Part shown: positions 39,641 to 63,400 of the stretch, one piece after another
How the letters are laid out: the number at the start of each line of letters is the position of its first letter
Numbering within the stretch: the stretch's first letter is position 1
Source of the DNA: Candidatus Oxydemutatoraceae bacterium
GTDB taxonomy: Bacteria > Pseudomonadota > Gammaproteobacteria > Poriferisulfidales > Oxydemutatoraceae
DNA length: 64,000 nt
Assembly (NCBI GenBank): GCA_965211995.1
Contig: OZ243040.1
Coordinates: 1,031,620 to 1,095,619 of the forward strand
Direction: 5' to 3'
Notes under the pieces: model-generated
What the model saw: the letters and a program-made list of their open reading frames with translations, nothing else
Database searches by the model: none
What the model was told of the DNA's origin: nothing
Translations under genes and position numbers: made by a program

Positions 39641-39680
39641 TCCATATACGGCGCGAGCGCTTCAGGCAGACGCCAATTTC

Positions 39681-39830: not shown

Positions 39831-39899
39831 CCGGCGGCGCACGCGGCCTTGTTGCCGATCTTAAGGCTTCAATTGGCGGATGCCGCCCGTTGCAATGCG

Positions 39900-43345: not shown

Positions 43346-43394
43346 CGGCGCATCCCCGCTGAGCGCAGCAAACCTTACCCGCCTGCGTCATCTG

Positions 43395-43625
43395 CGAATC
43401 ATTTCAGACTGTTTCATCTCCGCTTTAACCGCGGCTTTATCTGAGGGTCATTGCACCCCGTTTCATCTCTGCCTTAACCAATCGCCTTATCTGCGGGGCA
43501 TTGCGCCCCGTTTCGTCTCCGCCTTAACCAATCGCCTTATCTGCGGGGCATTGCGCCCCGTTTCGTCTCCGCCTTAACCCATCGCCGCATCTGCGGAAAT
43601 CCGCGTCATCCGTGGATCATTACAA
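43395..43625. repeat. Roughly 58-bp tandem repeat, 4 copies
   Basis: The unit is gtttc(a/g)tctc(c/t)gcc/tttaacc.atcgcc.tatctgcggggcattgcgcccc. The last copy degenerates into the palindrome gcggaaatccgc. Confidence 0.65.
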
Positions 43626-43752: not shown

Positions 43753-46700
43753 CTAACCCGTGGTTAGACAACGACGGAGAGCCGTGCGCCGGCGATTGGC
43801 GCCGGAAACCAGAAAACCCATTGCCAGTATCAGCAGCCAGCCCCACTCCATTGCGCCGCCGCCGCCACCGCCGCCACCGGTGCTACCGCCACCGCCACCG
43901 CCACCGCCGCCGCCACTGCCGCCGCTCAGCGCGCTGGGGTCATGAATCACCCCGTTTCTCAATCTGTCCGCGTCATTGATGCGGCCGTCCTGGATCTCCA
44001 CCAGCAGGCACTCGTCCCCCACGTTCATGCCGGAGTCACTCGCCCGGCGCCAGATGCCGGGAAGCGACTCCCTGTCATCTCTCCGCTGCGCGTTAAGTCC
44101 GGGGCACGGCGCCGGCGCGCCGTAGTAATCATCTAACGGCGCTATCGCCCCGGTCGTGAATCGGCCGTTCCAGCCGTCTTCACCGGTGTACTTGCGCAGA
44201 CGTGCGCCGGCGAACTCCACCGCGCGCGCCAGCGGGATCACCACGCTTGCCAGGCCGCCGTTCCCTACCCCGCTCACGTGGAAATCAAACACCCCGGTCT
44301 CCGCGTAGCGCGGCGGCGTGCTGACCCCTCCGGTCGCGGCATCTACAGGCGTACTGCCGTCCGGGATCTGCGCCGACTCAGGCGCGACCTGCATCGCCGC
44401 CAAGGCATAGCCGCCGTACCCGACCCGAGGATCTCCCGTGCCGGATATCTCCAGAAACGCATTATCCCTTACCCGCAGCCGCCGAGTGCCTTCGCCAAGA
44501 TCCGGGTCGGGGCTCATCACGGGACCGAAACCAAACAAGACGTTGCCTCTCAATTGGATCCCGCACGCCAGAGAAATTCCGAGGTCCGGGTTGTCAGGGT
44601 CTATACCAAAAGTAGCGGGCACGGTTAATTCCAAGTCCAATCTCATCGCCGGCGAAAAATCCCCAAGTAGGATATTTCCATCAGACGGGAAAGTAACACT
44701 AGCCGTTCCCGTTTCCGTTGTTATCGTTATTTCAGGACTTCCGACGAAATTCTCATCCAGCCTCATGCCGTTAAAGGATACCTCCGCGGTGACGCGCTGC
44801 ACGCCGCTGCCGCGATTGGTAATGTCGGCCCCCATCATAATCACGGTCGCACCGGTATTCGCGTCAAGTGTGGCTTCGCATTGGTCAATGTTCACCGTGA
44901 AGAGCGAGGTGACATCAATATTCCTGGGGGGATCATCACCTTCGTCGATCTCATTATCGGCAACCACCGACACGAGCAGTCTTCCTGGTTCTATTTCATC
45001 CTCGCCGCTTGGGACGATGCCCCGGATCAGCACCTCGATCAAATCGCCCACCCGAATGTCGCTAACATCCAGGAAACTCACCCCCACCGCCGTTGCCGTC
45101 CCGGCGGTCGCAGGCACCGTCGCCATTCCCGGCACGCCATTGACCGTCAGCGGCGTCGTTGACACGCGGTTGCGCAGCATCGCCGTCACCTGATAGTGGA
45201 GGATGGTTTCCTCTGTGGGCCCAATCGTGAACACAAAACCCCCGCTCCCGATCGCCACCCGGGTCAAATCGGGAGGATCCGCAAAGAGCAGGACGCGGTC
45301 GGAAGAGGGCGGCGGCTCGTCCTCGACCTCGACCTCGACGTTGCCTGTTGTGACCCGCTGCGCGAGGGGAAGACCGGGCGGCACCCGACTCACCAACTCC
45401 ATGAACGGCGTGAAATCGGCAATGCGCAGCGACAGATCTGCCGTCCCCAACGTGACCTCGGCGGTCATGCGGGTGGCGGCCTGGGTCAGCGTGAGCGTAA
45501 CGGGCGGCGTGACGCCGGTAACCTCCACTTCCAACGTGAATTCGAACGACGACTCGTCCAGAATATCCTGCGACACGGCCACCGACACCGGCACCATCAC
45601 CTGCGCATTGGCGTTGGTCACCGAGTTCACCTCAAACCCCACCAGCGGCTGAACGTAGAAAATCTGTGTCCGCATCGTCAGTTCGCCGTTTACATCGGTG
45701 GCGACCCACAGCACCGACCTCAAAAACGAACCCAAATCAATAGAGCGATCATCCGCATCTCCATTGGGCCCCACCCTCGTGCAGTGTTCGTCGAGTGTTT
45801 CCAGCACTCGCACCGGCGCCGGCCCGGCAATCCTGTCCAACTCCATCCTGCACTCATCCGTGTACTCATAGGCGCGCAATTCCACGCAGCGGTCGCAACT
45901 CGTCTCCGGCACCGGTATCCGGGACGTCCGCCCCGGGCGGATAAAGATCGTTTCGCCACGGACCAACGTCCCCCCTCCCACCGTGTCAACCGTGATCACC
46001 GCTTCCGAGGCGCTCACCCTGAGTTGGAACGTCCGCATCACCGTTGAGGTCTCGCCGTCGTACGCCGAGATCGTCACCGTGTAGCCTCCCAGATCCGCGT
46101 CGTTATCCACCGTGCCGCTGACCGCGCCCGTCGCTATGCCCGTCGTCCCGTCCATCTTTGGATCGTAGGTGAGGCCGGCGGGCAGGCCGGTCACGGTCAC
46201 AGTCACCGCGTTGTTGTCCGTCGCCACGACTCGAAACGGCGTGATCGTCTGACCGCGGGAGTAGAACCTGTATCCCGGAGGCCTGTCGGCCGGGGGCATC
46301 GTAATCACCGGCGGCACACCGTTCACTCTCATTGTGAACGTCGCCACCACCGGATCGTTCACGCCGTCGTTCGCCGTGACCGTCACCAGGTAGTCCCCTG
46401 CGGCCGCGTCGTTATCCACCGTGCCGCTGACCATGCCCGTTGCCAAGTCGTAATTGAGGCCGGCGGGCAAACCGGCTACGTCCGCCGTCACCGCGTCGTT
46501 GTCCGTCACCGTGACCGGAAACGCCGTGATCGGCTGCGCCTGAGTGGTTTCTACAATGTTTTCCGGGACCGTGATCACCGGCGCCCTGTTGGTTATCGTC
46601 ATCGTGAACTGCACCTGAACCTCTGGATTCACTTGGTCGTTCACTGAGATCACCACCGTGTAGTCCTGCTCCCTGACTGTGTCGGACGCCACTGTGCCGC

Positions 46701-49098
46701 TGATTATGTCCGTCCTTGGGGTGTAGATGAGGCCGGAAGGCAGGGGGGCCACCCTCTTTCTCGCATCCGTGCCGGTGTTTGTAATCGTCAACTGCAACAC
46801 GACTGTCTCGCCCTGATCGTATTCCTGGTCCCCCGGGTGGGTGATATCCGGCGGCGCATCAATCAACGTTATGGTGAACTCCGCCATCGCGCTCTCCCCC
46901 ATCTCATCGGTCGCCGTGACCACCACCGTGGTGACCCCTATGGGCGCGTTGGGTCTCACCGTGCCGCTTACCACTATCATGCCCATGCCGTCGTTGTTGA
47001 TGGTTAGTGGTTGATCGTTGTCTGGTGTTGCGCTAAGGCCGTTGCTCGGCAAGCCGCCCACGTCCACCGTCACCACTCCGCTATCAATCACTTCGATATT
47101 GAACGGCTCAATTCTCTGGCTTTGCTTGTAAATCCTGTTCCCCGGCTCGGTGATGGTAATATCCGGCGGCGCATTCGTTATTTCTATATCAAACGCCTCC
47201 TCCGTCACCGGACTGTTCACGCCGTCGTTCGCCATGATCCTCACTGAGTAGATCTGCACCGGCGCGTTGCGCGCCACTGTGCCGCCGACATTGCCCGTCT
47301 CCGCATTGTAGTTGAGGCCGTTGGGCAAGTTGGTTACCGTCACCGTCAGCGGGTCGCCGTCATCCGTCACCGTGATCTGAAACGGCTCAATCATCTGCCC
47401 CTGGGTGAATACAAAGCCCCCCGGGCCAGTAATTTCCGGCGGCGCATTCGCCTCCACTGTCATCAGAAACGTGCTTGCCACCGCACCCTCTTCGTCTGTC
47501 GCCATAACCATCACTATGTAATCTCCCACCCGCGCGTTGTCATTCACCGTGCCGCTTATTTCCGCTCTGCCGCCGGTCAGCAGTGCAGGGTCACCTGGCG
47601 AAACCGGAACTTCAGTTGCGACGAGGCCGACGGGCAGGCTGCCGGCGTCCACGGTCACGCTGACCGGGTCGGTATCGTCCGCATGAATCACGAACGGCGT
47701 AATGTCCCGGCCCTGAGTCACACTTCTGCCATTTATCTGGTCCAGGTTGGTGAACACCGGCGGCACATTGGTCACCGTCATTTGGAATGTTGCCGTCGGC
47801 GAGTTCGCGCCGTCGTTCGCCGTCACCGTCACCGTGTAGTCCCCTGCCTGCGCGTTGCGCGCCACCCTGCCTGTCACTTCGACTGTTGCTTCACTGCCAC
47901 CGGGCGGCTGTCCGCTATTGAAACGGAATACCGGTTCGTCGAGGCCATCGGGCAGACCGTCCACCGTCACCGTCAGCAGGTCGCCGGCTATGTCCGTTAC
48001 CGTGATCGTGATCGACGGGAGGATCTCCTGCCCCTGGGTGAATTCTAAAATCTCCGTCGGGACCGTGATCACCGGCAGCGCGTTGAGCACCCTGAGGTCG
48101 AACATCACCGTCGGCGTGCTCACGCCGTCGCCCGCCGTGATTATCGCCGTGTAGGCCCTCACTTCCGCGTTGTTCTCCACCGTGCCGCCCACGCTCTCCG
48201 CCTCCGGATCATACTCAAGGCCGGCAGGCAGGTCGTCCACCGTCACCATCAGCAAGTCATCGGCTATGTCCGTCACCACGATCGGGATCGGCGGGGAAAC
48301 CGTCTCGCCCTGGGTGAATACGAAGTCCCCCGGGTCAGTAATTTCCGGCGGCGCATCGTTCACCGTCATCTGGAACGTTGCCGTCGGCGTGCTCGCGCCA
48401 TCGCCCGCCGCAATCGTCACCGTATAAGTCCCCGCTTCCGCGTTGTTCGCCACCTGGTCATCAATCGTGACCTCGACTGTGACCACGGCCACAGCCGGGG
48501 CGCCGGCCGTGCTTGTCTCCAGGCTGTGGCTGAGGCCGTCGGGCAGACCGACCACCGTCACCGTTGGTAAGTCGTTGCCAATGTCCGTCACCTGAACCGT
48601 GATCGGCGGGAAAACCGTCTCGCCCTGGGTGAACGTGAAAGTCTCCGCCGGGACAGGAATCACCGGCGGCGCATTGAGCACCGCTATGTCAAACGTTACT
48701 GGCTGGAACTCCTGCGTGCTCCCGCCCTGCTCCTCGCTCAGCCGAAAAGTCGCACTAATCGTCGTCATGTAGGTCATCGCTTCCACGTTGTTCGCCACCG
48801 TGCCGACCAATCCTTCCGTCGCCGAGTCATACTCAAGACCGGCAGGCAGACCGGTCACAGACACCATCACATTGCTAATGCCCAGCACTAGAGCGCCGTC
48901 ACTGTCGCGCACCCCCGTTAACACAATCGGGACCGGGAGAATCGTCTGGCCTTGGGTGAACACCTGGTTCCCCGGAGGAGTGATCGCGGGGCCGGGGAAT
49001 GCTTGGGCGGCGGCAAAATCAGCCTGCAACAACAAGCCGAGCGCCAAGACCGCGAAGCCGCCCGGAAATATCAGCGATAAAAGCCGCGACCGTCTCAT
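43753..49098 (-). CDS. Giant secreted adhesin-like protein (1781 aa) with 11-12 Ig-like (cadherin/He_PIG-type) repeats and a GlyGly-CTERM-like C-terminal sorting signal
   Basis: Signal peptide MRRSRLLSLIFPGGFAVLALGLLLQADFAAAQA. Repeats of about 95 aa follow (APPxIT.PG.FVFTQGETV.P..I.VTD...DLLTVTV.GLP.GLEYD....VGGTV.NNA..G.YTV.ITA.DG...PTATF.MTV.N), then a roughly 700-aa non-repetitive region. The C-terminus is SGGSGGGGGGGGGGSTGGGGGGGGAMEWGWLLILAMGFLVSGANRRRTALRR (Gly run, TM helix, Arg cluster). Confidence 0.8.
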   Translation of the reverse strand: MRRSRLLSLIFPGGFAVLALGLLLQADFAAAQAFPGPAITPPGNQVFTQGQTILPVPIVLTGVRDSDGALVLGISNVMVSVTGLPAGLEYDSATEGLVGTVANNVEAMTYMTTISATFRLSEEQGGSTQEFQPVTFDIAVLNAPPVIPVPAETFTFTQGETVFPPITVQVTDIGNDLPTVTVVGLPDGLSHSLETSTAGAPAVAVVTVEVTIDDQVANNAEAGTYTVTIAAGDGASTPTATFQMTVNDAPPEITDPGDFVFTQGETVSPPIPIVVTDIADDLLMVTVDDLPAGLEYDPEAESVGGTVENNAEVRAYTAIITAGDGVSTPTVMFDLRVLNALPVITVPTEILEFTQGQEILPSITITVTDIAGDLLTVTVDGLPDGLDEPVFRFNSGQPPGGSEATVEVTGRVARNAQAGDYTVTVTANDGANSPTATFQMTVTNVPPVFTNLDQINGRSVTQGRDITPFVIHADDTDPVSVTVDAGSLPVGLVATEVPVSPGDPALLTGGRAEISGTVNDNARVGDYIVMVMATDEEGAVASTFLMTVEANAPPEITGPGGFVFTQGQMIEPFQITVTDDGDPLTVTVTNLPNGLNYNAETGNVGGTVARNAPVQIYSVRIMANDGVNSPVTEEAFDIEITNAPPDITITEPGNRIYKQSQRIEPFNIEVIDSGVVTVDVGGLPSNGLSATPDNDQPLTINNDGMGMIVVSGTVRPNAPIGVTTVVVTATDEMGESAMAEFTITLIDAPPDITHPGDQEYDQGETVVLQLTITNTGTDARKRVAPLPSGLIYTPRTDIISGTVASDTVREQDYTVVISVNDQVNPEVQVQFTMTITNRAPVITVPENIVETTQAQPITAFPVTVTDNDAVTADVAGLPAGLNYDLATGMVSGTVDNDAAAGDYLVTVTANDGVNDPVVATFTMRVNGVPPVITMPPADRPPGYRFYSRGQTITPFRVVATDNNAVTVTVTGLPAGLTYDPKMDGTTGIATGAVSGTVDNDADLGGYTVTISAYDGETSTVMRTFQLRVSASEAVITVDTVGGGTLVRGETIFIRPGRTSRIPVPETSCDRCVELRAYEYTDECRMELDRIAGPAPVRVLETLDEHCTRVGPNGDADDRSIDLGSFLRSVLWVATDVNGELTMRTQIFYVQPLVGFEVNSVTNANAQVMVPVSVAVSQDILDESSFEFTLEVEVTGVTPPVTLTLTQAATRMTAEVTLGTADLSLRIADFTPFMELVSRVPPGLPLAQRVTTGNVEVEVEDEPPPSSDRVLLFADPPDLTRVAIGSGGFVFTIGPTEETILHYQVTAMLRNRVSTTPLTVNGVPGMATVPATAGTATAVGVSFLDVSDIRVGDLIEVLIRGIVPSGEDEIEPGRLLVSVVADNEIDEGDDPPRNIDVTSLFTVNIDQCEATLDANTGATVIMMGADITNRGSGVQRVTAEVSFNGMRLDENFVGSPEITITTETGTASVTFPSDGNILLGDFSPAMRLDLELTVPATFGIDPDNPDLGISLACGIQLRGNVLFGFGPVMSPDPDLGEGTRRLRVRDNAFLEISGTGDPRVGYGGYALAAMQVAPESAQIPDGSTPVDAATGGVSTPPRYAETGVFDFHVSGVGNGGLASVVIPLARAVEFAGARLRKYTGEDGWNGRFTTGAIAPLDDYYGAPAPCPGLNAQRRDDRESLPGIWRRASDSGMNVGDECLLVEIQDGRINDADRLRNGVIHDPSALSGGSGGGGGGGGGGSTGGGGGGGGAMEWGWLLILAMGFLVSGANRRRTALRRCLTTG

Positions 49099-51711: not shown

Positions 51712-52722
51712 TTGATGAACGACCGCTGGCAACAAGAATTGCAAAACTCGGTCACGCGCGTCGCCGATCTTTTGCACGCGCTCGAACTCGACCCCGACGA
51801 GTTGCCGTTCGCCCGCGATATCAAAGACTTCCCGACGCGGGTGCCGCGCCCTTATCTCGCGCGCATACGCAAGCGCGACGCCGGCGACCCGCTGCTGCGC
51901 CAGGTGCTGCCGGTCGCCGACGAGACCATTCATTCCCCCGGATACGCCGTTGATCCGGTCGGCGATCTCGGCGCGCACCGCGGCGGCGGCGTCCTGCACA
52001 AATACCACGGCCGGGTGCTGCTGGTCGTCACCGGCGCCTGCGCGATCCACTGCCGCTACTGCTTCCGCCGCCACTTCCCCTACGCCGGGCACGCGCTCGC
52101 ACGCAGCCTCGACCGCGCGCTCGCCTACGTCGCGCGCGACGCGAGCGTCGAGGAAGTCATTCTGAGCGGCGGCGACCCGCTGAGCCTGAGCAACCCGCGG
52201 CTGTTTGAGTTGTGCCGGCGGATCGAAAGCATCGCCCACGTACGGCGCATCCGCATACACACCCGCCTGCCGATCGTCGTGCCGTCGCGTCTGGAAGACG
52301 AGTTATGCAACTGGCTCAACCGCCGCCCGAAACGCTACCTCGTGGTCTTCCACATCAACCATCCGGCGGAGATCGCAACCGACGTCGAGCGCGCGGTATC
52401 ACGCCTGACGGCGCCGACGCTGATGAACCAGGCGGTGCTGCTCAAAGGCGTGAACGACGACGCCCGCACCCTCGCCGACCTGAGCCGCAAGTGCTTCGGC
52501 GCGGGCATTTTGCCGTATTACCTGCACCTGCTCGACCGCGTGCGGGGCGCGGCGCATTTCGAAGTCGACGCGGCGCGCGCGCAGGCGCTGATGCGCGAAC
52601 TTGCAACCCTGCTTCCGGGGTATCTCGTACCGCGGCTTGCACGCGACGACGGCGGCCCCTCAAAACAATTCCCGCTGCAACACGCCGGCAGTGAACGCCC
52701 GCGTCCTTCGCGCACAACTTGA
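51712..52722 (+). CDS. epmB: EF-P beta-lysylation protein EpmB (lysine 2,3-aminomutase-like radical SAM, YjeK)
   Basis: CAIHCRYCFRR is the radical-SAM motif. The C-terminus LPGYLVPRLARDDGGPSKQFPL matches the YjeK end. It is divergent from efp-epmA. Confidence 0.88.
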   Translation: MMNDRWQQELQNSVTRVADLLHALELDPDELPFARDIKDFPTRVPRPYLARIRKRDAGDPLLRQVLPVADETIHSPGYAVDPVGDLGAHRGGGVLHKYHGRVLLVVTGACAIHCRYCFRRHFPYAGHALARSLDRALAYVARDASVEEVILSGGDPLSLSNPRLFELCRRIESIAHVRRIRIHTRLPIVVPSRLEDELCNWLNRRPKRYLVVFHINHPAEIATDVERAVSRLTAPTLMNQAVLLKGVNDDARTLADLSRKCFGAGILPYYLHLLDRVRGAAHFEVDAARAQALMRELATLLPGYLVPRLARDDGGPSKQFPLQHAGSERPRPSRTT

Positions 52723-52880
52723 TCCACCCGTGCCGAGGCTTGCACGCGACGACGGCGGCCCTTCAAAACAATTCCCGCTGCAACACGCCGGCAGTGAACG
52801 CCCGCGTCCTTCGCGCACAACTTGATCCACCCGTGCCGAGGCTTGCACGCGACGACGGCGGCTCTTCAAAGCAGTCCTCG
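52632..52880. repeat. 102-bp tandem repeat, about 2.5 copies, duplicating the last roughly 30 codons of epmB
   Basis: cttgcacgcgacgacggcgg.c.ttcaaaacaattcccgctgcaacacgccggcagtgaacgcccgcgtccttcgcgcacaacttgatccacccgtgccgagg is repeated. Track ORFs 52601..52825 and 52719..53468 re-encode ...VPRLARDDGGPSKQ.... Confidence 0.7.
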
Positions 52881-52924
52881 GATTCAAGCCTGAACACAAC
52901 GTCTGCCCGTCATCCTCTTGTGCC

Positions 52925-53080
52925 TGTCCGCCTCATCTGTGGATTTATCTTTGACCGGGCTGTCTTGTTTGAGCCTCAGGCGATGCCGCGCAACGCTTGC
53001 CTTCTTCCTTTTACCGCACTCCGGACTGAAAGAAGTCCCCGCTCCCGCATCAACCGCAAGCCGTCGTCGAAAGACGCCGG
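52925..53080. repeat. Dispersed repeat family 2, copy B
   Basis: cgcctcatctgtggatttatctttgacc...cttgtttgagcctcaggcgatgccgcgc...gcactccggactgaaag matches 24545-24760. Confidence 0.5.
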
Positions 53081-53173
53081 CGCGACCGCCGCGAGCCTGG
53101 TCCAAACCCGCCCCCCAATGCTTGTCGGCAACGAATTGCCGGCCGGCGGGAACTTTGCGTCACTTGGCCCGGA

Positions 53174-54058
53174 TTACCTCCGCTCGAGTGCGCCGATGCG
53201 CTCGGCGAGCGGTGGATGGCTCATGAACAGGCGCTTCAGCCCCGTAGCGCCGCCGCCCCTGATGCCGAAAGCCGCGAACTGCTTCGGCAGGTCGGGGGTT
53301 TCGTGCACCGCTTGCAGGCGCTTGAGCGCGGCGATCATCCGGTCGCGTCCCGCGAGGCGCGCACCGCCCTCGTCGGCACGGAATTCACGGCGGCGTGAAA
53401 ACCACATAACGATAGTCGTCGCCAGGATCGACAAGACGATCTGCGCGAGGATCGAAGTGATGAAGTAGGCCGGACCGTAGCCGTGTTGCGATCTGAACAC
53501 CACGCGGCTCACGATATGGCCGATGATGCGCGACAGGAAAATCACGAACGTATTGATCACGCCCTGGATCAGGGTCAGCGTCACCATATCGCCGTTGGCG
53601 ACGTGGCTGATCTCGTGGCCGAGCACCGCCTCGACCTCGCCGGGTTCCAGCGTGTGCAACAGCCCCTCGCTGACCGCGACCAGCGCCTTGTTGCGGAACA
53701 TCCCGGTTGCGAACGCGTTCGGCTGCGACGACGGAAAAACCCCGACTTCGGGCCTCGCGATGCCCGCGGCTTCGGCCTGCCGTGCGACCGTATCAAGCAG
53801 CCATTTTTCCTTGCCGCCGCCCGGCCCGGCGATGACTCTGACACCCAGCGAGCGCTTCGCCATCGCCTTCGACATCGCGAGCGAAATAAAGGCGCCGGAC
53901 ATGCCGAACGCCGCCGAGATGATCAGCAAACCGGTCAGGTTGAGATCCGATCCGCTTCTTAAGAGCAGGTTTTCAACGCCGAACAGGCTCAGCGTAATGT
54001 TCAATACGAACAAAACCGCGAGGTTGGTCGCCATCAGCAAAGCGATCCTTGTCAACAT
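53174..54058 (-). CDS. htpX: Protease HtpX (M48 zinc metalloprotease, membrane)
   Basis: HEISHVANGD is HExxH. Four TM segments. 294 aa. Confidence 0.9.
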   Translation of the reverse strand: MLTRIALLMATNLAVLFVLNITLSLFGVENLLLRSGSDLNLTGLLIISAAFGMSGAFISLAMSKAMAKRSLGVRVIAGPGGGKEKWLLDTVARQAEAAGIARPEVGVFPSSQPNAFATGMFRNKALVAVSEGLLHTLEPGEVEAVLGHEISHVANGDMVTLTLIQGVINTFVIFLSRIIGHIVSRVVFRSQHGYGPAYFITSILAQIVLSILATTIVMWFSRRREFRADEGGARLAGRDRMIAALKRLQAVHETPDLPKQFAAFGIRGGGATGLKRLFMSHPPLAERIGALERR

Positions 54059-54640
54059 AGCGCATCCTCCACTTCGAGACGGTCAATGCTGCGGCAGCTC
54101 TGAGGCAACTTGTGCCCGCGCCGCAATGTTCAATACGAACAAAACCGCGAGGTTGGTCGCCATCAGCAAAGCGATCCTTGTCAACATAGCGCGTCCTCCA
54201 CTCCGAGACGGTCAACGCTGCGGCAGCCCTGAGGCATCTTGCGCCCGCGCCGCAATGTTCAACACGAACAAAACCGCGAGATCAGTCGCCATCAGCAAAG
54301 CGATCCTCATCAGCATAGCGCGTCCTCCACTTCGAGACGGTCAACGCTGCGGCAGCCCTGAGGCAACTTGTGCCCGCGCCGCAATGTTCAACACGAACAA
54401 AACCGCGAGATCAGTCGCCATCAGCAAAGCGATCCTCATCAGCATAGCGCGTCCTCCACTTCGAGACGGTCAACGCTGCGGCAGCCCTGAGGCAACTTGT
54501 GCCCGCGCCGCAATGTTCAACACGAACAAAACCGCGAGATCAGTCGCCATCAGCAAAGCGATCCTCGTCAGCATAGCGCGTCCTCCACTTCGAGACGGTC
54601 AACTTTGCGGCAGCCCTGAGGCAACTTGCGCCCGCGCTGC
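54057..54640. repeat. 129-bp (43-codon) tandem repeat, about 4.5 copies, duplicating the htpX promoter-proximal region and first roughly 20 codons
   Basis: The unit boundaries, marked by atagcgcgtcctccact(t/c)cgagacgg, are at 54057, 54186, 54315, 54444 and 54573. On the minus strand each unit contains ATG CTG ATG AGG ATC GCT TTG CTG ATG GCG ACT GAT CTC GCG GTT TTG TTC GTG TTG AAC ATT GCG ... TGA. That is a 34-aa [37 protein letters not shown], which is a copy of the HtpX TM1. Confidence 0.8.
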
Positions 54641-57156
54641 CCGCGCCGGCCGCGGTAATGCGCCAGATCGGCGAACGCGATGCGCTTGAGGCGGCGCCCG
54701 GCATGCACGATCAGCGTCTGTCCCGGCTGCACGCAGATCGCGGCCGCAAGGCTTTCCTCGCCTGAAGCCAGGCGGCTTTTCGGTATATTGATCAACTTGT
54801 TGCCCCGCCCCTTTGACAATACCGGAATCTCCGCCAGCGGCACGACCAGCATATAGCCTGCGCTGCCGACCGCCACGGCGAGACCGGTCTTCGGGTCGCC
54901 CGCGGACGCCGCGGCGAGCGCGTGCGCGCCTTGGGGCACGCTCAACACTTGCTTGCCGGCGCGCTTGTGCGAGACGGTGTCGCCGAAACGCACCAGCAGT
55001 GCATAGCCGTGGCTGCTCGCGAGCAGATGCAAGCGGTCGCCGCCGCCGGTCATCACGCCGACGAAGTTCGTCGCTTCCGACAATGAAAAACAACTGCTGA
55101 GCGGCTCGCCCTGCCCGCGCGGCGACGGCAGGCTGCGCGCAGGCAGGCTGTAGCAACGGCCGCGCCCGTCGAGGAAAACCGCGTCGCGGCGGTTGTCGCC
55201 GCGCGCGATCGCGAGGAAAGCGTCTTTGGTGCGGTATTCAAGCGCCGCGGCGTCAACCTCGTGCCCGCGCACCACGCGCACCCACCCCATCCTCGACAAT
55301 ACGATCGAAAGATTTTCGACCGGCACCAACTGTTCATGTTTAAGTTCCTCGGCCGCGCCGCGCGCGACCAGCCGGGTGCGCCGTTCGTCGCCGCAGGCTG
55401 CGACGTCCGCCTTGAGTTCTTTTTTGACCAGGGTCTTCAGGCGCCGCGCCGACTTCAGGTACGCTTCGACGTCTTTTTTCTGCGCGCTCAGTCTCCGCTG
55501 CTCCTCGCGGATACGGATTTCCTCGAGTTTCGACAACTGGCGCAAACGGATCTCGAGGACCGCGCGCACCTGCACCTCGCTGAGCTTGAAGCGGCGCATC
55601 AACTCGGCCCCGGGGTCGTCCTCCTTGCGAATGATCGCGATCACCGCATCGAGATTGAGATACACGATCATCAGCCCGCCGAGTTCTTCGAGACGGCGGT
55701 TGATCTTAGCGAGGCGCCACGCGAGGCGGCGGCGGACCGTGTCCTTCCTGAAGTCGAGCCATTCGCCGAGCAGTGCCTTGAGCGTTTTGACCTGCGGCTT
55801 GCCGTCGTTGCCGATCACGTTGAAATTGACGCGGCGGTTGTATTCGAGGTCGGTGGTCGCGAACAGGTGCGACATCAGGCGCTCGCGGTCAACGCGCTTG
55901 CCGCGCGGCACCAGCACGAGCCTGACCGGATGCTCCTGGTCGGACTCGTCGCGCAGGTCCTCGATCCACGGCAATTTTTTGTCCCTGACCTGCGCCGCGA
56001 TCTGCTCGAGCACGCGCGTCGCCGACACCTGGTACGGCAGCGAAGTGATTACGATCTCGCCCCGCTCGACAACGCAGGTCGCGCGGATGCGGATCATCCC
56101 GGCGCCGTGCTCGTAGATCCCGCGCACGTCCCCGGTGTCGCTGACAATCTCGGCGCCGCCCGGAAAATCCGGCCCGCGCACGTCTTCAAGCAACTCGGCC
56201 AGCGTCGCTTTGGGCGAGTCGAGCAGGCGGATGCACGCCGCCGCCACTTCGCCGAGGTTGTGCGGCGGGACATCGGTCGCCATGCCGACGGCGATGCCCG
56301 AGGTGCCGTTCAGCAACAGGTTCGGCAGCCGCGCCGGCAGGCGCACGGGCTCCTCGAGCGTGCCGTCGAAGTTCGTGCGCCAGTCGGTCGTGCCCTGATC
56401 CAACTCTTCGGTCAGCGTCTTGGCGTAGGCGCTCAGGCGCGCTTCGGTGTAGCGCATCGCCGCGAACGACTTGGGGTTGTCAATCGAGCCCCAGTTGCCC
56501 TGTCCGTCGATCAGCGGGTAGCGGTAACCGAAAGGCTGCGCCATCAGCACCATCGCCTCGTAGCAGGCGGCGTCGCCGTGCGGGTGATACTTGCCGATCA
56601 CGTCGCCGACCGTGCGTGCGGACTTTTTCGGTTTGGCGCCGGCGTTGAGTCCGAGTTCGGACATCGCATAAACGATCCGCCGCTGCACCGGCTTCAGACC
56701 ATCGCCGAGAGCGGGCAGCGCGCGGTCGAGCACGACGTACATCGAGTAGTCGAGGTAGGCGCGCTCGGCGAACTCGACCAGCGGAACCCGGCTGGCGGGG
56801 GCGGCGGGGACGGCTTGCCGCGGGGGCTTGCCGCCGCCTTTCTTGACCGGGGCGCCGGCTTCAAGTTTGAACGCCGGCCCGTCGTCCTCTTGCGTCCGTC
56901 CGCGGCGTCTTTTGTATTTCCCCCCACCGCCCGGGCTGCGCCCGGCCGACTTTCCCTCAAGGGGAGAGTGTTCTTCAGCGGCCTGCGCTTTTTTCTTTGG
57001 CCGCACTTCGGACTGGAAGTTGGCGGCTTCCTTTACGACAGATTTCTTTGCGCCGGCTTTAGCGGATTTTTTCTTCGCGGCCACCTTGACGGATTTTTTC
57101 TTCGCGGCTTCCTTAGCGGCTCTCCGGACGGCGCCTTTTGCAACGACTCTTGCCAC
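54568..57156 (-). CDS. parC: DNA topoisomerase IV subunit A (ParC), with an unusual N-terminal extension
   Basis: The conserved core starts ...[44 protein letters not shown] at about 56800 and carries the active-site Tyr region ...[10 protein letters not shown]. There is no ATG/GTG/TTG between the MITE copy and the core. The only in-frame starts are a GTG inside the MITE (about 56990) or the GTG at 57156, which lies 5 nt after the HAD-gene stop. The latter would add an Ala/Lys-rich tail, [22 protein letters not shown]. Confidence 0.8.
56865..57020. repeat. MITE-like element copy (inverted orientation relative to the copy at 58155) inside the parC 5' region
   Basis: ggcttcaagtttgaacgcc...gtcttttgtatttcccccc...ccctcaagggg...ccgcacttcggactgg. 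Confidence 0.6.
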
Positions 57157-57160
57157 CGCG

Positions 57161-58090
57161 TCACTCGCTCAAATGACCGGGCGCAGTGCCGACGCTGCTT
57201 TCGAGTTGGCGCGCGCGCCGCTCGACGATGCCGTCGGCGACGTCTCTCGCGGTGCGCATCAGCCAGCGCCAGGTCGGCGTATCGGTGCGGTAGTCGGCCG
57301 GCCCCATCGCATCTACGCGCCGCTCCTTGTGCAGCAGGTCGTAGGCCTGGTCGTAGGCGAGTTCGGAGTGCGGATTGTGCACCGCGTAAGTGCGTCCGCC
57401 GAGGCGCTTGACCACCGAAAACACCGGCACGTCGCTCGGCCCGTCGGCGACGTAGATCATCTGCGGGATCGGCACGCGCCGCTCGCTTTCCTCCATGCGC
57501 GCGTTCACGTCGATGCCGGGCTCGACGTTGACGCCCTTGTTGATCTCGAAAATCGCGCGCGTCTTGGTGGTGTGATCGAGCACGTAGCCGATCGAAGACA
57601 AGCGCGTGCGCCCGTCGCCGCCCCGCTCGTCGAGCAACTCGCAGCCCCACACCCCGTCGAGATGACCGTGCAACGCGCTGCCGGCGATCATCTGCCGCAG
57701 GCCGGTGCTGACGACGTAGTGCTCGACCTTGATGTCGTGCGCTTGGTACGGCTCGCGTTCCAGCACCCGCTTCATCTCGTCGAAAAATTCCGGCAACCCC
57801 GGATAGAACTCAAGTTCGGCGCCGAGCGCGCGCAATTTGTCGTTGTTCAGCCCCTCGAAGACGCCGCGGCGCACGTAATCGAGAATATGACTCAGGTACA
57901 GCACCTCGTTGGACGTCTGATCGCAACCCTGCTCCTTGTACTTATCGGGCAGTTGATTGACTTCGTCCCAGAAAGCGCGCTCCTCAATGCCGTAGGCGGC
58001 GAACAGCGGCGCCTGCATGTGACCCGGAATCAGGGTCTTGTCAAAATCCCAGATCACCGCGACGATGTTTTGCGAAAAAAACTGCGTCAT
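57161..58090 (-). CDS. HAD-superfamily hydrolase
   Basis: Motif [13 protein letters not shown] (DxDxT). 309 aa. It lies between parE and parC and is bracketed by an inverted MITE pair. Confidence 0.65.
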
Positions 58091-58154
58091 GCCGGAGCCT
58101 GCGCGAGATTGCCCCTGCCGGCGAGCCGTCCGCGGCGCCCGTAGCCGGGAATTT

Positions 58155-58320
58155 CAACTGCCAGTCCGAAGCGCGGCCAACGGCAGAAAAGCAGGCCGCC
58201 GAAAATCACTTTTTCCCTGAGGGGAAGCCGGCCGGGCGCAGTCCGGCCGGTGGGGGGAAATACAAAAGACGCCACGGACGGACGCAAGAGGACGGCGGGA
58301 CGGCGTTCAAACTTGAATCC
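58155..58320. repeat. MITE-like element copy, flanked by a roughly 155-bp divergent duplication of the parE 3' end / HAD 5' end junction (57985-58140 against 58340-58500)
   Basis: ccagtccgaagcgcgg...ccctgaggggaagccggccggg...ggtggggggaaatacaaaagacgcc...cgttcaaacttgaatcc. The upstream duplicate retains the first roughly 35 HAD codons (MTRLFSQTLVAVIRDFGKTLIPG...) fused to nothing. Confidence 0.6.
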
Positions 58321-58445
58321 GGCGCCCCGGAAAGCGCGCTCCCCGAAGCCGCAGGCGGCGAACAGCGGCGCCTGCACGCAGCCCGGGATCAGGGTCTTGC
58401 CGAAATCCCGGATCACCGCGACGAGGGTTTGCGAAAACAACCGCG

Positions 58446-60335
58446 TCATGCCAGATCCTGCGCGAGGTTGCCCTTGTCGGCGAGCCATGCGCGGCGCTCG
58501 GACGCACGCTTGCGTGCAAGCAGCATGTCCATCGTCTCCTCTTCGGCGGCGCCCGCTGCGTGCACCAGTTGCAGCAGGCAGCGGCGCTCCACGATCATCG
58601 TGGATTCCCTGAGTTGTTGCGGGTTCATCTCGCCGAGTCCCTTGAAGCGCGTGATCCGCGCGCGCGCCGCGTCCCTCTGCGTAAGACCCGCGAGGCAGCG
58701 GTCGCGCTCCTCTTCGTTGTTCGCGTAGTGCACGTCCTTGCCGACGTCGATGCGAAACAGCGGCGGCACCGCGACGTAGGTGTGCCCGGCGGCGACCAGT
58801 TTCGGAAAGTGCCTGACGAACAGCGCGGCGAGCAAAGTCGAGATGTGCAGCCCGTCGGCGTCGGCGTCGGCGAGGATGCAAACCTTGCCGTAACGCAGCC
58901 CGGCGAGGTCGTCGCTGCCGGGCTTGACCCCGATCGCGGTCGCGATGTCGTGGATCTCCTGCGATGCGAGCACGTCGTCGGTGGCGGCCTCCCAGGTGTT
59001 CATGATCTTGCCGCGCAGCGGCATCACCGCTTGGAAGCGCCGGTCGCGCGCCTGCCGCGCCGAGCCGCCCGCCGAGTCGCCCTCGACCAGGAACAACTCG
59101 TTCTCGCCGAGGTCGCTCGAAGCGCAGTCGGCGAGTTTGCCCGGCAGCGCGAGGTTCAGGAACATGCTTTTGCGCGGCTGCTTTGCGTTCTTGCGGCGGC
59201 GCTTGTGCGCGTTCGCGAGCGCGAGTTCGACGATGCGTCCGCCCTCGCGCGGGTGGCGGTTCAGCCACAGGCTCAGCGCGTCTTTGGTCACGCTTTGCAC
59301 CACCGCGGCCGCTTCCTTGTGGGTCAGGCGCTCCTTGGTCTGGCCCGCGAACTGCGGATTTTCGATCTTCAAGGACAGCAGGTAGCAGACGTTCGACCAA
59401 AAGTCGTCGGGCGCCGGCTTGACGTTCTTCGGCGTCAATTCATGGAACTGCATGAACTCGCGCACCGCCTCGACAACCCCCGCGCGCAGGCCGCTGACGT
59501 GGCTGCCGCCCTGCGGCGTCGGCACCAGATTGACGTAACTCTCGGCGGGCGGCGGCGCGTCCTCGCCGACCCAGTTCAAGCACCACGCCAGTTCGTGGTC
59601 CTCGCCCGCGTGGCTGTCGCTGATGTTCTCGCCGAGCAGCAAGACGCACCCGTCGGCGAGCGAGTTGAAGTATTCGGGCAGCCCGTTCTGATAGCACCAC
59701 TCGCTGCGGTCGCCGCCGCGCTCGTCTTCGAGCGTGATGCGCAAGCCCGGACACAGCACCGCCTTTGCGCGCAGCAACCGGCGCAGACGTTTGCGGTCGA
59801 AGCGCACGCTGTCGAAAAACTCAGGGTCGGGGCGGAAGCGGATAGCCGAGCCCGAGGCGCGTTTTGCCGTCTTGCCGACCTCTGCGAGCGGACCCGTCGC
59901 CTTGCCGCCGCTGAAAGCCATGTTGTATTCCTTGCCGCCGCGCTTGATCCAGATCTCGAGGTGCTGCGACAAGGCGTTGACCACCGACACGCCGACCCCG
60001 TGCAGGCCGCCGGCGTAGCGGTAATGGCGGTCCGAGAACTTGCCGCCCGAATGCAGCGTCGTCAAAATCACCTCGACGCCGGAGCATTTGCGCTGAGGGT
60101 GCTTATCCACCGGCATGCCGCGCCCGTCGTCGCGCACGCTCAGCGAGTGGTCGCGGTGCAGCGTGATCTCGATCACGCCGGCGTGTCCCGCCAGCGCTTC
60201 ATCCACGCTATTATCTATGACTTCCTGCGCAAGATGGTCGGGGCTCGCGGTGTCGGTGTACATGCTCGGGCGCTTTCGCACCGGGTCGAGCCCGCTCAGG
60301 ATCTCGATTGAAGCCGCATCGTAGGAGGCGTGCAT
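58446..60335 (-). CDS. parE: DNA topoisomerase IV subunit B (ParE)
   Basis: MHASYDAASIEILSGLDPVRKRPSMYTDT...EVIDNSVDEA are the GHKL ATPase motifs. A Toprim EGDSAGGS is present. 630 aa, matching ParE size rather than GyrB. The 50 extra N-terminal codons in the track are Arg-rich junk. Confidence 0.88.
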   Translation of the reverse strand: MHASYDAASIEILSGLDPVRKRPSMYTDTASPDHLAQEVIDNSVDEALAGHAGVIEITLHRDHSLSVRDDGRGMPVDKHPQRKCSGVEVILTTLHSGGKFSDRHYRYAGGLHGVGVSVVNALSQHLEIWIKRGGKEYNMAFSGGKATGPLAEVGKTAKRASGSAIRFRPDPEFFDSVRFDRKRLRRLLRAKAVLCPGLRITLEDERGGDRSEWCYQNGLPEYFNSLADGCVLLLGENISDSHAGEDHELAWCLNWVGEDAPPPAESYVNLVPTPQGGSHVSGLRAGVVEAVREFMQFHELTPKNVKPAPDDFWSNVCYLLSLKIENPQFAGQTKERLTHKEAAAVVQSVTKDALSLWLNRHPREGGRIVELALANAHKRRRKNAKQPRKSMFLNLALPGKLADCASSDLGENELFLVEGDSAGGSARQARDRRFQAVMPLRGKIMNTWEAATDDVLASQEIHDIATAIGVKPGSDDLAGLRYGKVCILADADADGLHISTLLAALFVRHFPKLVAAGHTYVAVPPLFRIDVGKDVHYANNEEERDRCLAGLTQRDAARARITRFKGLGEMNPQQLRESTMIVERRCLLQLVHAAGAAEEETMDMLLARKRASERRAWLADKGNLAQDLA

Positions 60336-60473
60336 GATTAAAAGCAAGGTGATAAACGATGAATTATAAACCAGGCCCTCCGACGTCGGACGCCGACCGG
60401 CCCGCGCCGCGGCACGCCCGCAGCGGCGGCGGCGGGCATTAACGCGACGACGACACCGAACGCTGCGGCGGCG

Positions 60474-63400
60474 ATGAACACCCACACCACGACGGCCCTA
60501 AACGTAATTGAGGCGGCGGCGCCGAACGTCAACGCGGCGGTGTCGGCTTCCGCCGGCACCGGCAAGACCTGGCTGCTGGTGACGCGGCTGCTGCGGCTGC
60601 TGCTCGCCGGGGAACCGCCCGCCTCGATCCTCGCGATCACGTTCACGCAGAAAGCCGCCGCTGAGATCCGCACAAGGCTGACCTCGACGCTGCGCGACTG
60701 GACGCGCGCCGACGACGCCGCGCTCAAGCGCGAACTCGAGCACCTCGGCGCCGCGCCCGCGCAGGTGCGGCGCGCGCGCGCACTGTACGAAACGCTGATC
60801 TACGCCGAAAACGACATCCGCATCCTGACCTTCCACGCGTTCTGCGCGGAGATCCTCGAGCGCTTTCCGTTCGAGGCCAAAGTCCCGCCGGGGTTCGAGA
60901 TCTGCACCGAGGAATGGGAGTTGCAGGACGAGGCGCTGAACCGGTTGTACACGGCGGCGGCCGGTCCCGCTCAGGCCACGGCGCGGGCGCTGCAAACGTT
61001 GTTTGAAGCCTGCGGCGGGCTGGCCAGCACCAACCTCGCGCTCAGGAACTTCCTGAACCACCGCAACGACTGGCTCGCCTACGTCGAACCGGACACACAA
61101 ACGCCGGCGCAGACCGCGACCCGGCACTTGAGCGAAATGCTCGGCGTCGAGCCCGAAGACGCCGAACGCGGCATCGTGCTCGACGCGCCGACGCGCGAAC
61201 TGCTCGCACGGCACGCGCGGCTGCTCGCGCTGCACGACACCCAAACCTTCCGCGGACACACCGCTGCGATCGACCACTTTCTCGCGTCCGGCGCGGAAGC
61301 CGGCGCGGAAACGCTGCCGGCGCTGCTCGACTGCTTTTTCAAACGGGACGGCGGCGAGCGAGCGCACGAATTCACGGGCAACGCGTTCCGCCAGGCGCTG
61401 GGCCCCGAGTACGCCGAGTTTGACGCCGGGCGGGCGGCGCTGGCCGCAACGCTGACGACGCTCAAGGAAGTGTTACTCAAGCGCCGGACCTTGTGCCGCA
61501 ACCGCGCGTGGTACGTCGCGGGACAGCACCTGGCCGACATCTACCGCGAACTCAAACTCGCGCGCCGCCAACTCGACTTCAACGACCTCGAATGGCTCGC
61601 GTGCCGCGTATTGAACCGCGAAGACGACGCGCAGTGGATCCAGTACCGCCTGAACGAGCGCATCCGCCACGTATTGGTTGACGAATTCCAGGACACCAAC
61701 CCGCAGCAGTGGCAACTGCTCAAGCCGCTGCTCGAAGAAATGGCGTCGCAGCAGGACGGCGGCAGCGCGTTCATCGTCGGCGACGTCAAGCAGTCCATCT
61801 ACGGGTTCCGCCGCGCCAGCCCGGAGTTGCAGGACGAAGCCGGGAACTGGCTGTGCCGGCACATGGGCGGGCGGCTTTACACCACCGACGTCTCGCGGCG
61901 CTCCTCGCCGGCGGTGGTCGAATTCGTCAACCGCGTGTTCGACCCGGCCGGCGGGAACGAGGACGGCGGCGGCGGTGAACGCGGCAAAGCGCCGATGCTG
62001 CCCGGCTTCAGGACGCACGTCAGTCATCTCGATACGCCGGGCGGCGTCATCGTGCTGCCGTTCGCCGAAAAACAACCGGCCGCGGAGGCGCCGCGCGAGT
62101 GGCGCCGCATCCTGCGCGACCCGCCCGCGCCCGGCGGCGCTTTGCCCGCGCTCGCGGAAGGCGAGCGGATCGCCGCGTACATCGCGCGCATGGTCGGCGA
62201 CCGCGTCGCCGTGCACGACCGCGACGGCCGCGTGCGCCCGCTGCGCTTCGGCGACGTCACCTTGCTGTTGCGGAGACGCACGCGGCTCGACTGCTACGAG
62301 CAGGCGCTGGTCAAGGCCGGCATCCCCCACACCAGCGGGCGCACGGAAAAACTGTTCGGCTCGCTCGAAATCGCGGACCTGCTCGCGCTGCTTCAATTCC
62401 TGGTCAACCACGAGCGCAATCTCGATCTTGCGCAGGTGCTGCGCAGCCCGATCTTCGCCGCCACCGACGAGCAGTTGATCGCGCTGGCGCAAACCGCGGA
62501 CGGCTGCTGGTTCGCGCGTCTCGGGCGGCAGCACGGCGACGCCGGCCTGCAACGCGCACACGCATTGCTCAGCGACTGGATCGAGGCCGCGCGCACGCGG
62601 CTGCCGGCGCACGACCTGCTCGACCGCGTCTATCGCGAAGGCGACGTAATCCACCGCTACCGCTGCGCCGCGCCGGACGAGGAACAAGACCTGGTCGAGA
62701 AAAACCTGGTGAGCCTGCTCGACCACTCGCTCGAATTTGAAAGCGGGCGCTACCCGGACGTCGCGCATTTCGCGCGCAGCCTGAAGCGCCGCATCGCGCG
62801 CGCCCGCGGCGGGCGCGCGGCGCTGACGACGAGCATCGAACCCGACGACCTCGACCGCGTGCGCATCCTGACCATCCATCAGGCGAAAGGCCTCGAAGCG
62901 CCGGTGATCGTCCTCGCCGACTGCGGCAAGCAGAAAAAAAAAGCCGGCGCCTACGGCGTGCTCGCCGACTGGCCGCCCCACGGCGAACAGCCCGCCAACT
63001 TCCGGCCCGAAACGCGGCCCAAGGAAGCCGGGCAGGCCGCTGAAAATCGCCCCCCCCTCGGGGGGGAGGCGCCCGGGTTGCACCCGGCCGGTGGGGGGGA
63101 ATACACAAAACAACGCGGGCGGGCGCCGGAAGACGACGGGGCTACGCCGCACTTCAGACTTGAATCCGGCCCCGCGCATTTCCTGCTGGTGCCGAAATCC
63201 GGCCACGTTGACGCTTTCACCGAACAGTGCAAGCGCCGCCTCGAACAACGCGAAGCGAGAGAAGACGCGAACCTGCTGTACGTGGCGTTGACGCGCGCGC
63301 GCCAGTACCTGGTCATCTCAGGCAGCGGCAGCGAGCCCGCGGCCGACTGGTACGGGCTGCTCGAATCTCGCGCACCGAAAACGGTGACGGAGTTTGAAAC

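Follow-up and report, generated by a model that had tools for sequence, protein, structure and literature searches.

In-frame insertion of MITEs into genes is an established phenomenon (PMC10969869). The Rickettsia palindromic elements (RPEs), repeats of ~150 bp, are inserted in frame into protein-coding genes, and intragenic ERIC, BOX, Anabaena MITEs and QMITE1 have been described as well (PMC10969869). Among DNA topoisomerases, the lysine repeats of actinobacterial topoisomerase I (TopA) confer DNA-complex stability and processivity (PMC7398561), and GyrA's N-terminal arm lies at the TOPRIM domain, adjoining the G-segment (PMC6821735). We analysed a stretch of 64,000 nucleotides (the window) from an uncultured GC-rich gammaproteobacterium and consider it probable that its ParC protein has an ancestral basic N-terminal tail, translated from a GTG at position 57156 and containing a MITE-like insert that is read through in frame. 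The kind of event, an in-frame repeat in a protein gene, is already known from Rickettsia. The locus would extend it to a GC-rich gammaproteobacterial lineage and would provide a comparatively anchored case in which selfish repeat DNA was absorbed by an essential enzyme without disabling it, the pre-insertion state being visible in relatives.

The parC open reading frame (54568-57156, minus strand) encodes 862 amino acids, and its product is topoisomerase IV subunit A. The NCBIfam profile TIGR01062 (parC_Gneg) scored 958.1 bits against a curated equivalog cut-off of 628.9, and gyrA models scored under their cut-offs. Residues 123-855 align to profile positions 3-734 of 735, so that the conserved core runs from residue 123 onward (54568-56790, minus strand) and the extension lies outside the profile. 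The C-terminus is intact and agrees with the C-termini of relatives. Like canonical Gram-negative ParC, such as that of E. coli, the protein matches the profile over its full length and has its parE partner in the same operon (58449-60350, minus strand; TIGR01055 parE_Gneg, 811 bits); it differs in having 122 additional N-terminal residues. Directly upstream of parC lies a gene for a HAD-family hydrolase (57161-58090, minus strand; ORF list), for many of whose homologues (P0121-P0240) the precomputed Pfam annotation gives PF12710. The ORF list also contains long antisense ORFs that overlie parC.

The GTG start codon of parC (57154-57156, minus strand) lies 4 nt past the HAD-gene stop, in the arrangement TGA cgcg GTG, with the TGA at 57163-57161. 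No start earlier than this GTG is possible because an in-frame stop for the parC frame is present at 57171-57169, 15 nt upstream of it. The arrangement fits a translational-coupling geometry within a parE-HAD-parC-M48 operon, and the HAD gene, judged by position, fits the role of coupling partner of parC. A weak purine-rich sequence, GAGCGAG, is found 8-14 nt upstream of GTG 57156 and overlaps conserved codons of the HAD C-terminus. The original prediction, that the open frame runs on to this GTG and that the GTG is placed for coupling to the HAD stop, was borne out in both respects, with the repeat at codons 42-104 of the ORF. It had also placed the conserved ParC start at about 56800, with no ATG, GTG or TTG for 60 codons upstream. 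The V of VEFAERAYL is at 56778, and the absence is real but extends over 75 codons (codons 52-126). The lysine- and alanine-rich codons said to precede the GTG do exist; in gene orientation they follow it.

The in-frame candidate starts are GTG at codon 1 (57156), codon 25 (57084) and codon 51 (57006, within the repeat) and CTG at codon 126 (56781); the next ones, ATG 56742 and GTG 56733, already fall within the conserved YSMYV motif. Since GTG 57084 and GTG 57006 are both in the parC frame, ParC might start at one of them, which would make the upstream lysine- and alanine-rich codons dispensable; from GTG 57006, the repeat itself would provide the start codon and some of the N-terminal residues. 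We regard such a start as improbable. None of the internal candidates has a Shine-Dalgarno-like sequence, a purine-rich stretch 5-12 nt upstream being missing for both GTG codons, and no promoter-like or terminator-like site was found on the parC strand between 56600 and 57400. Moreover, GTG 57156 keeps a conserved coupling geometry, so ribosomes would read through the internal GTG codons anyway.

To place the extension in an evolutionary context, related loci were retrieved via the HAD neighbour, which is less conserved than ParC, together with their contigs, and 10 related loci were compared; a ParC-based genome scan gave, among the matches listed, relatives of 60% identity or less. The gene order parE-HAD-parC-M48 is kept in all 10 loci. 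In 8 of them parC starts 3-9 nt past the HAD stop, as in the window, with GTG or ATG. The ParC tail varies from 22 to 147 amino acids, and in 9 of the 10 loci it is a basic, A/K/G/P-rich tail of 32-147 amino acids with a net charge of +7 to +40. The longest, in L085, contains a tandem repeat of 93 bp in 3.7 copies. The repeat element of the window has no match in any of the 10 loci, nor did nhmmer detect one over the 821 kb of loci fetched. The comparison of orthologues that had been proposed as a check on the extension thus reveals a basic tail in relatives that all lack the repeat. In the spacer between the HAD stop and the conserved motif, the parC frame of the 10 relatives is free of stops over 633 codons; the two other frames together contain 22 in 1253 codons (Poisson P about 1.5e-5).

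This frame conservation bears directly on a further possibility, namely that ParC starts at the non-canonical CTG 56781 beside the core and that the upstream frame is an untranslated leader, open by chance. The CTG is in frame and directly ahead of VEFAERAYL, and open frames are common at the GC content of the window. A supposed leader, however, that is open in the parC frame in 10 of 10 relatives, carries stops off-frame and has its first codon, a start codon, at the HAD stop makes this reading highly improbable. A CTG-started protein would also miss residues that the profile covers from 123 onward, while 107 database ParC homologues have a median of 19 residues, of neutral or acidic charge, ahead of the FAERAYL-type motif (F/Y-A/T-E-K/R-A-Y-L). 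The original prediction had named a non-canonical start with its own ribosome-binding site next to VEFAERAYL as the finding that would overturn it; CTG 56781 is the sole such codon, and the sequence upstream of it (cccccgccagccgggttccg) contains no purine-rich, Shine-Dalgarno-like stretch. From this comparative anatomy we infer that the long ORF opening at the HAD stop is the translated product. For annotation this would mean that the long ORF, and not a trimmed version, is the right gene model.

Within the window, the ancestral tail is found in two parts. The proximal Lys/Ala-rich part (codons 2-41; 57034-57153, minus strand) begins with seven codons, VARVVAK, that are homologous to VAKVAAK of the closest relative, L081, a conservation that again speaks against a start at an internal GTG. 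It contains a 27-bp tandem duplication of 2.4 copies (57043-57106; Tandem Repeats Finder), which gives AAKKKSVKV / AAKKKSAKA. The distal part (about codons 105-122; 56791-56845, minus strand) is homologous at both DNA and protein level to L081 (APAAPVSRVALVE) and to L082 (AAPSRVPLVE); SRVPL, the codons right after the distal tail, is already part of the conserved core. Both ends of the tail are thus homologous to the L081 tail and the repeat is an in-frame insertion between them. Because the start geometry and the basic tail are kept in repeat-free relatives and both tail ends have homology to L081, we take the lysine-rich tail to be ancestral and translated, with the repeat inserted within it. 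Of the two alternatives offered initially, a start inside the repeat, which has neither a ribosome-binding site nor comparative support, is disfavoured, and a lysine- and alanine-rich tail followed by repeat-derived sequence is the one that the relatives support.

Taken as a whole, the 128-aa tail including the repeat insert has 34 K+R versus 11 D+E. A Pfam scan of the tail returned no family, and GC3, used as a coding signal, did not discriminate among frames in the tail. An AlphaFold2 model of residues 1-419 has residues 2-47 as a helix (pLDDT 69-86) and residues 48-125 as low-confidence coil; as the model is poor overall (mean pLDDT 58), it was used as a weak indication, and so is its call of disorder.

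The MITE-like repeat in parC occupies codons 42-104 (56846-57033, minus strand; 173-188 bp), as delimited by blastn, nhmmer and alignment of the copies; its terminal inverted repeats alone would give limits of 56853-57025. In the 64-kb window there are five good copies, including that in parC, and four degenerate ones, in both orientations. The closest sister copy (58149-58331, plus strand; blastn and nhmmer), 87% identical and inverted relative to the parC copy, lies between parE and the HAD gene and is bordered by a 175-bp duplication. The other good copies, found with nhmmer, are a full-length one with terminus motifs at both ends (62989-63179, plus strand), an intergenic one between an ankyrin-repeat gene and serS (39662-39836, plus strand), and one truncated at one end, in the intergenic region between a Na+/H+ exchanger gene and a large gene with a He_PIG domain (43212-43356, minus strand). 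Local duplications and tandem arrays accompany copies of the repeat. Several copies are overlain by long ORFs (61473-63248, 39795-41042, 42840-43391, 1785-2309 and 52719-53468), which were treated as spurious high-GC ORFs because none has a Pfam family. The pentapeptide NFQSE was considered as a relic of an ancestral ParC N-terminus (compare NFEGVE of other ParC proteins) and was excluded, since every copy of the repeat encodes it within its conserved terminus.

Whether the label MITE is appropriate was evaluated separately. The element is small, dispersed and present in both orientations, and its conserved terminus motif, present at both ends, occurs 9 times in the window against 0.17 expected by chance, all of which fits a MITE. 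The match between the terminal inverted repeats is imperfect. The parC copy has 19 of 27 positions alike, as many as in 3 of 500 shuffles, and the copy at 39662-39836 has 19 of 24, a value that none of 500 shuffles attained; in two other copies of the four tested by shuffling the inverted repeats are not significant, and a seed-based repeat finder did not report them. No consistent short target-site duplication was seen in the flanks that were inspected, and within the 64-kb window no parent IS or transposase with matching termini was seen. Predicted RNA folding of the repeat (-77.8 kcal/mol) is no more stable than that of shuffled sequences (mean -74.5 kcal/mol, z = -0.73); together with the lack of an Rfam match, this led us to reject a reading of the repeat as an RNA gene. 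It is therefore possible, though doubtful, that the repeat is not a transposase-mobilised MITE but belongs to a different class of dispersed repeats, either propagated through recombination or duplication or of REP/RPE type, a reading to which the inverted repeats, the missing target-site duplication and parent IS, the RNA fold and the surroundings of the copies all lend some weight; the effect on parC would be the same and the origin different. The description of the element as a MITE in the original prediction accordingly holds for its small size, copy number and dispersal, and less well for its imperfect termini and for the duplication and transposase that were not found. Compared with intragenic ERIC, BOX, Anabaena MITEs and QMITE1 (PMC10969869), the element is alike in being small and multicopy, in having a frame that stays open inside it and, as far as two of the four copies tested show, in its imperfect terminal inverted repeats, and it differs in that neither target-site duplication nor parent transposase was identified in the window. 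A 23-nt core of the repeat had no match in two exact-pattern scans of JGI metagenome contigs, and its absence from that collection suggests a lineage-restricted family.

The translation of the repeat in the parC frame is open and strongly hydrophilic (net charge +5, mean hydropathy -1.45), and the equivalent frame is also open in the copies at 58149-58331 and 62989-63179. Of the element's six frames, four are open in DNA of 65% GC; as open frames are cheap at such composition, an open frame alone proves little. Compared with its closest sister, the parC copy differs at 6, 12 and 5 sites in codon positions 1, 2 and 3. The repeat peptide therefore shows no sign of purifying selection, and it may be a neutral passenger or a linker and not a domesticated domain. 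Judging from the frame and the relatives, about 60 amino acids of ParC most likely derive from the repeat, and the suggestion that a repeat has become part of the 5' end of an essential gene is upheld insofar as the element lies in frame within the predicted ParC tail.

A second in-frame case was found in a riboflavin synthase (P0244), in which an insert of ~64 amino acids separates residues 82 and 83 (numbered as in the solved structure 4e0f). The insert is identical to the ParC repeat peptide at 30 of 54 residues (56%) and is read in the same frame; P0244 is probably from the same genome as the window. An exhaustive HMMER search with the repeat peptide gave four matches, three from probably the same genome and one to an unrelated repeat protein, and a word-index search gave none. 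Because the same peptide in the same frame also interrupts riboflavin synthase, the repeat family behaves like the RPEs. As with RPEs, short dispersed repeats have a sense frame that gives a conserved hydrophilic peptide, and they are placed in frame in housekeeping genes, away from the folded cores, here in the N-terminal tail of ParC and an inter-domain linker of riboflavin synthase. The host, however, is not Rickettsia and the likeness is functional rather than drawn from sequence comparison, the element is not markedly palindromic by its fold, and two or three in-gene cases have been seen so far as against dozens for RPEs.

The second case also bears on whether the ORF could owe its continuity to homopolymer runs that were wrongly assembled or called in the consensus, or could belong to a parC allele decaying to a pseudogene. 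The parC 5' region contains A6, G6 and C5 runs, and the relatives are metagenome assemblies with contig names that suggest long reads. Sequence errors, however, would break a frame rather than make a perfect 862-aa ORF, the riboflavin synthase case is probably on the same contig, and decay is at odds with a core that matches the full-length profile with 958 bits and an intact C-terminus. We give next to no credence to either version.

In the scenario that we favour, an ancestral tail with a read-through insert, the ParC of this lineage would have had a highly basic, Lys/Ala/Gly/Pro-rich N-terminal tail of variable length, with translation beginning at a GTG or ATG 3-9 nt past the HAD stop and coupled within the parE-HAD-parC-M48 operon. 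In the genome of the window, the 173-188 bp repeat would then have inserted into the tail-encoding DNA. Its orientation and phase give an open hydrophilic frame, so ribosomes from GTG 57156 would read through the element, and the resulting protein would consist of about 41 tail residues, about 62 repeat-derived residues and about 20 tail residues, followed by the normal core. The insertion would be tolerated because the tail, being of low complexity, stands apart from the catalytic fold and already differs in length among relatives.

The lysine repeats of actinobacterial TopA offer an analogy, and the GyrA/ParC N-terminal arm is placed around the TOPRIM domain; on these grounds the tail may bind DNA non-specifically near the DNA gate, as a histone H1-like module. 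It resembles the histone H1-like lysine repeats found in topoisomerase I and in HupB/HupS (PMC7398561) in that a DNA topoisomerase from a GC-rich organism bears a low-complexity extension, rich in Lys and Ala, that is of variable length and able to grow by tandem repeats, as in L085. In the actinobacterial case the repeats are at the C-terminus of a type IA enzyme, and here the tail, known from sequence, is at the N-terminus of a type IIA subunit. A broader reading, tentative and rather doubtful, is that an RPE-like family arose independently of Rickettsia with a sense frame pre-adapted to give a harmless, charged, disordered peptide, so that copies could persist in housekeeping proteins (ParC, riboflavin synthase and others), and that, separately, a rapidly expanding, histone H1-like N-terminal tail of topoisomerase IV might bind DNA and tune decatenation, the repeat being co-opted as tail or linker length. 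In the literature searched, no description of a clade-wide lysine-rich N-terminal ParC tail was found; it is a secondary point here, and an influence of such tails on DNA binding or processivity could be assayed in the way it was for the TopA lysine repeats. The contigs of the relatives measure 1.7-2.4 Mb and some are flagged circular, which points to small genomes.

The parC ORF on the minus strand encodes 862 aa and runs from a GTG at 57156 to the stop at 54568 (ORF list). Its product was identified as topoisomerase IV subunit A (NCBIfam TIGR01062, 958 bits vs. a cut-off of 629). The TIGR01062 match begins only at residue 123, and residues 1-122 are therefore an extension. That the ORF is an artefact or a pseudogene is unlikely, as the ParC core is full-length and intact and the C-terminus is intact as well. 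The GTG at 57156 (codon 1) follows the TGA of the upstream HAD-family hydrolase gene at a distance of 4 nt, in agreement with the original prediction of a start just past the HAD stop. An in-frame stop is present 15 nt upstream, which makes this GTG the sole possible opening of the ORF. It was also predicted that no canonical start adjoins the conserved ParC N-terminus, and indeed ATG, GTG and TTG are absent from codons 52-126. The other in-frame candidates on the minus strand are GTGs at codon 25 (57084) and codon 51 (57006) and a CTG at codon 126 (56781), the latter being the kind of rare start near the core that it had been suggested to look for. No purine-rich ribosome-binding sequence precedes these internal candidates. 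Translation from the internal GTGs or from the CTG next to the core is not supported by comparison with relatives either. No promoter-like or terminator-like sites were found on the parC strand between 56600 and 57400. Very long ORFs of 716, 438 and 437 aa [55261-57411 (+), 56828-58144 (+) and 58087-59400 (-)] overlap parC, HAD and parE on the opposite strand or in another frame. An open frame alone is no evidence of coding in DNA of 65% GC as in this window.

With residues 1-300 of the parC product as the query, no protein matching the extension was identified, and a genome scan with ParC gave, among the matches listed, distant relatives only. Relatives were found via the less conserved HAD neighbor, which yielded a graded series (84 to 61% identity), and ten contigs of these relatives form the comparison set. 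The gene order parE-HAD-parC-M48 peptidase is present in all ten. In eight, parC starts with a GTG or ATG 3-9 nt past the HAD stop. The predicted basic extension was recovered in orthologs, with an A/K/G/P-rich tail of 32-147 aa (net charge +7 to +40) before the conserved core in 9 of the 10 relatives; the tail as called in L090 is 22 aa long and not basic, and in L091, the most distant relative, the N-terminus is short and ordinary. Between the HAD stop and the conserved motif, the parC frame of the related loci contains 0 stops in 633 codons, compared to 22 stops in 1253 codons in the other two frames (Poisson P ~1.5e-5).

The repeat predicted within the parC 5′ region was located at 56846-57033 (~188 bp) by blastn and an nhmmer profile, and it is absent from the ten related loci. 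The ParC tail of the closest relative is VAKVAAKKSQSRAGGTAGARRPPGKTGGKARASAAPAAPVSRVALVEF; in the window 41 tail residues are followed by the repeat and then by 26 residues. Both tail ends are homologous to those of the closest relative at the DNA level, with the repeat as an insertion between them. The comparison of loci and the homology at both ends argue that the basic tail and the start at the HAD stop are ancestral and that the repeat landed inside tail-coding DNA. Of the two alternatives originally proposed, a tail followed by repeat-derived sequence is thus favored by the tails of the relatives and the homology on both sides, whereas a start inside the repeat is disfavored by the lack of a ribosome-binding sequence. 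The length of the tail is naturally plastic. The tail in the window contains a 27-bp tandem duplication, and the L085 tail (147 aa, net charge +40) derives from a 93-bp x 3.7 tandem array (L085 4937-5380) with a period of 31 aa, e.g., GSARKPAKKPGKKPATGTAKKLAKVAGKSAT.

Further copies of the repeat were detected with blastn and nhmmer at 62989-63179, 39662-39836 and 43212-43356, a copy 87% identical to that in parC lies in opposite orientation at 58149-58331, and four degenerate copies are found at 21864-21987, 52879-53034, 1898-1995 and 43098-43179. The terminus motif TTCCAGTCCGAAGYGCGG occurs nine times in the window (0.17 expected). Imperfect terminal inverted repeats match at 19/27 positions in the parC copy (equaled by 3/500 shuffles) and at 19/24 in the copy at 39662-39836 (0/500 shuffles). 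The repeat may or may not be a genuine MITE mobilized by a transposase: inverted repeats of two other copies are not significant compared to shuffles, inspection of the flanks showed no target-site duplication, and the RNA fold is no better than that of shuffles (z = -0.73). The small dispersed copies and the terminus motif make 'MITE-like', rather than MITE, a fair label. No Rfam match was found at the repeat. Two other copies are clearly intergenic, and long ORFs overlapping other copies are probably spurious since they contain no Pfam family.

In the parC frame the repeat encodes a stop-free peptide with 14 K+R and 9 D+E, a mean hydropathy of -1.45 and no cysteine. The second sense frame is likewise open and hydrophilic, and the antisense frames are more hydrophobic. 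Two other full copies are open in the frame equivalent to that of parC, and a third has a single stop there. An open frame is therefore a trait of the repeat family and was not selected after insertion. Differences between the parC copy and its closest copy are distributed 6/12/5 over codon positions 1/2/3, and selection on the peptide is thus not apparent from this comparison. In the AlphaFold2 prediction, residues 2-47 form a long helix (pLDDT 69-86) and residues 48-125 an unstructured, low-confidence chain; the model is poor overall (mean pLDDT 58).

When 1.84 billion representatives were searched exhaustively by HMMER with the parC-frame repeat peptide, four matches were obtained. Three of them (P0241, P0242, and P0244) are probably from the source genome, as their contig equals in length (1,943,614 bp) the one that carries the 100%-identical HAD protein. 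P0244, a riboflavin synthase, contains two Lum_binding domains. In the alignment to the enzyme of solved structure 4e0f, its residues 1-78 correspond to 1-82 and its residues 143-264 to 83-199. The ~64-residue insert between the two lumazine-binding domains is 56% identical to the ParC insert. In P0241 (409 aa), a signal-like N-terminus is followed by three tandem copies of the peptide and then by a C-terminal region, and P0242, a probably spurious 147-aa ORF, contains the peptide twice. The occurrences in P0244 and P0241 indicate that the family recurs in frame within genes, a frame preference not being claimable from a one-frame query. In this respect it resembles the Rickettsia palindromic elements, which also recur in frame within genes (PMC10969869). 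In-frame insertion of a repeat into a protein gene is therefore a known phenomenon; the host of the insertion is here a basic N-terminal ParC tail, for which no description was found in the literature searched.

Only a minority of ParC proteins carry a basic tail, a feature that arose in some lineages: among 107 other homologs with a recognizable N-terminus (median tail 19 residues, not basic), eight have basic tails of 30-52 aa, e.g., MAKKKSVGKSKSGKKKTPPARRK... (P0012, P0020, P0056, P0062, P0083, P0053, P0035, and P0005, all gammaproteobacterial and outside the clade). Given the anatomy of the locus, the relatives without the element, the retained start geometry and basic tail, and the tail homology on both sides, ribosomes coupled from the HAD gene would initiate at GTG 57156 and pass through the repeat, yielding a ParC with a longer tail. 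By analogy, the tail may be a non-specific DNA-binding appendage: it can be likened to the histone H1-like lysine repeats of actinobacterial TopA, which stabilize that enzyme's complex with DNA (PMC7398561), and GyrA/ParC's N-terminal arm wraps around the TOPRIM domain next to the G-segment (PMC6821735).

The other junctions of the operon contain repeats as well. At the parC/M48 junction a 129-bp unit is present 5.0 times at 96% identity (53996-54637). It consists of the last ~22 parC codons, the overlapping stop/start ATGCTGA and the first ~21 M48 codons, with the parC stop (54568) in the first unit and the M48 start ATG (54058) in the last. Most relatives show a 4-7 nt overlap of these genes, which in L083 are separated by 40 nt. 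A 175-bp direct duplication (57967-58141 and 58326-58500, 85.7% identical) of the parE-3′/HAD-5′ junction lies on either side of the repeat copy at 58149-58331. Of this duplication, the upstream copy serves parE and the downstream copy HAD, while the halves not in use are decaying. Together with the repeat in parC, this means that all three junctions of parE-HAD-parC-M48 have been remodeled by repeats. In L085, two small ORFs lie between parE and HAD, one matching the GyrB C-terminal domain, which suggests a junction duplication similar to that in the window. The inverted copies at 56846-57033 and 58149-58331 bracket the whole HAD gene (~1.1 kb), a potential substrate for inversion or composite-element behavior; in relatives the HAD gene is at the same place without repeats.

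The window is unusually repeat-rich, with tandem arrays of 157 bp x 2.8 (39145-39588), 50 bp x 3.7 (43411-43596) and 103 bp x 2.4 (52626-52870), each adjoining a repeat copy, and of 245 bp x 2.6 (18862-19494). It also encodes an ankyrin-repeat protein with several Ank families [38302-39165 (+)] and a 1781-aa protein with He_PIG/PKD Ig-like domains [43753-49098 (-)]. Together with the size of the relatives' contigs (1.7-2.4 Mb, some flagged circular), these proteins hint at a small-genome, possibly host-associated lifestyle.
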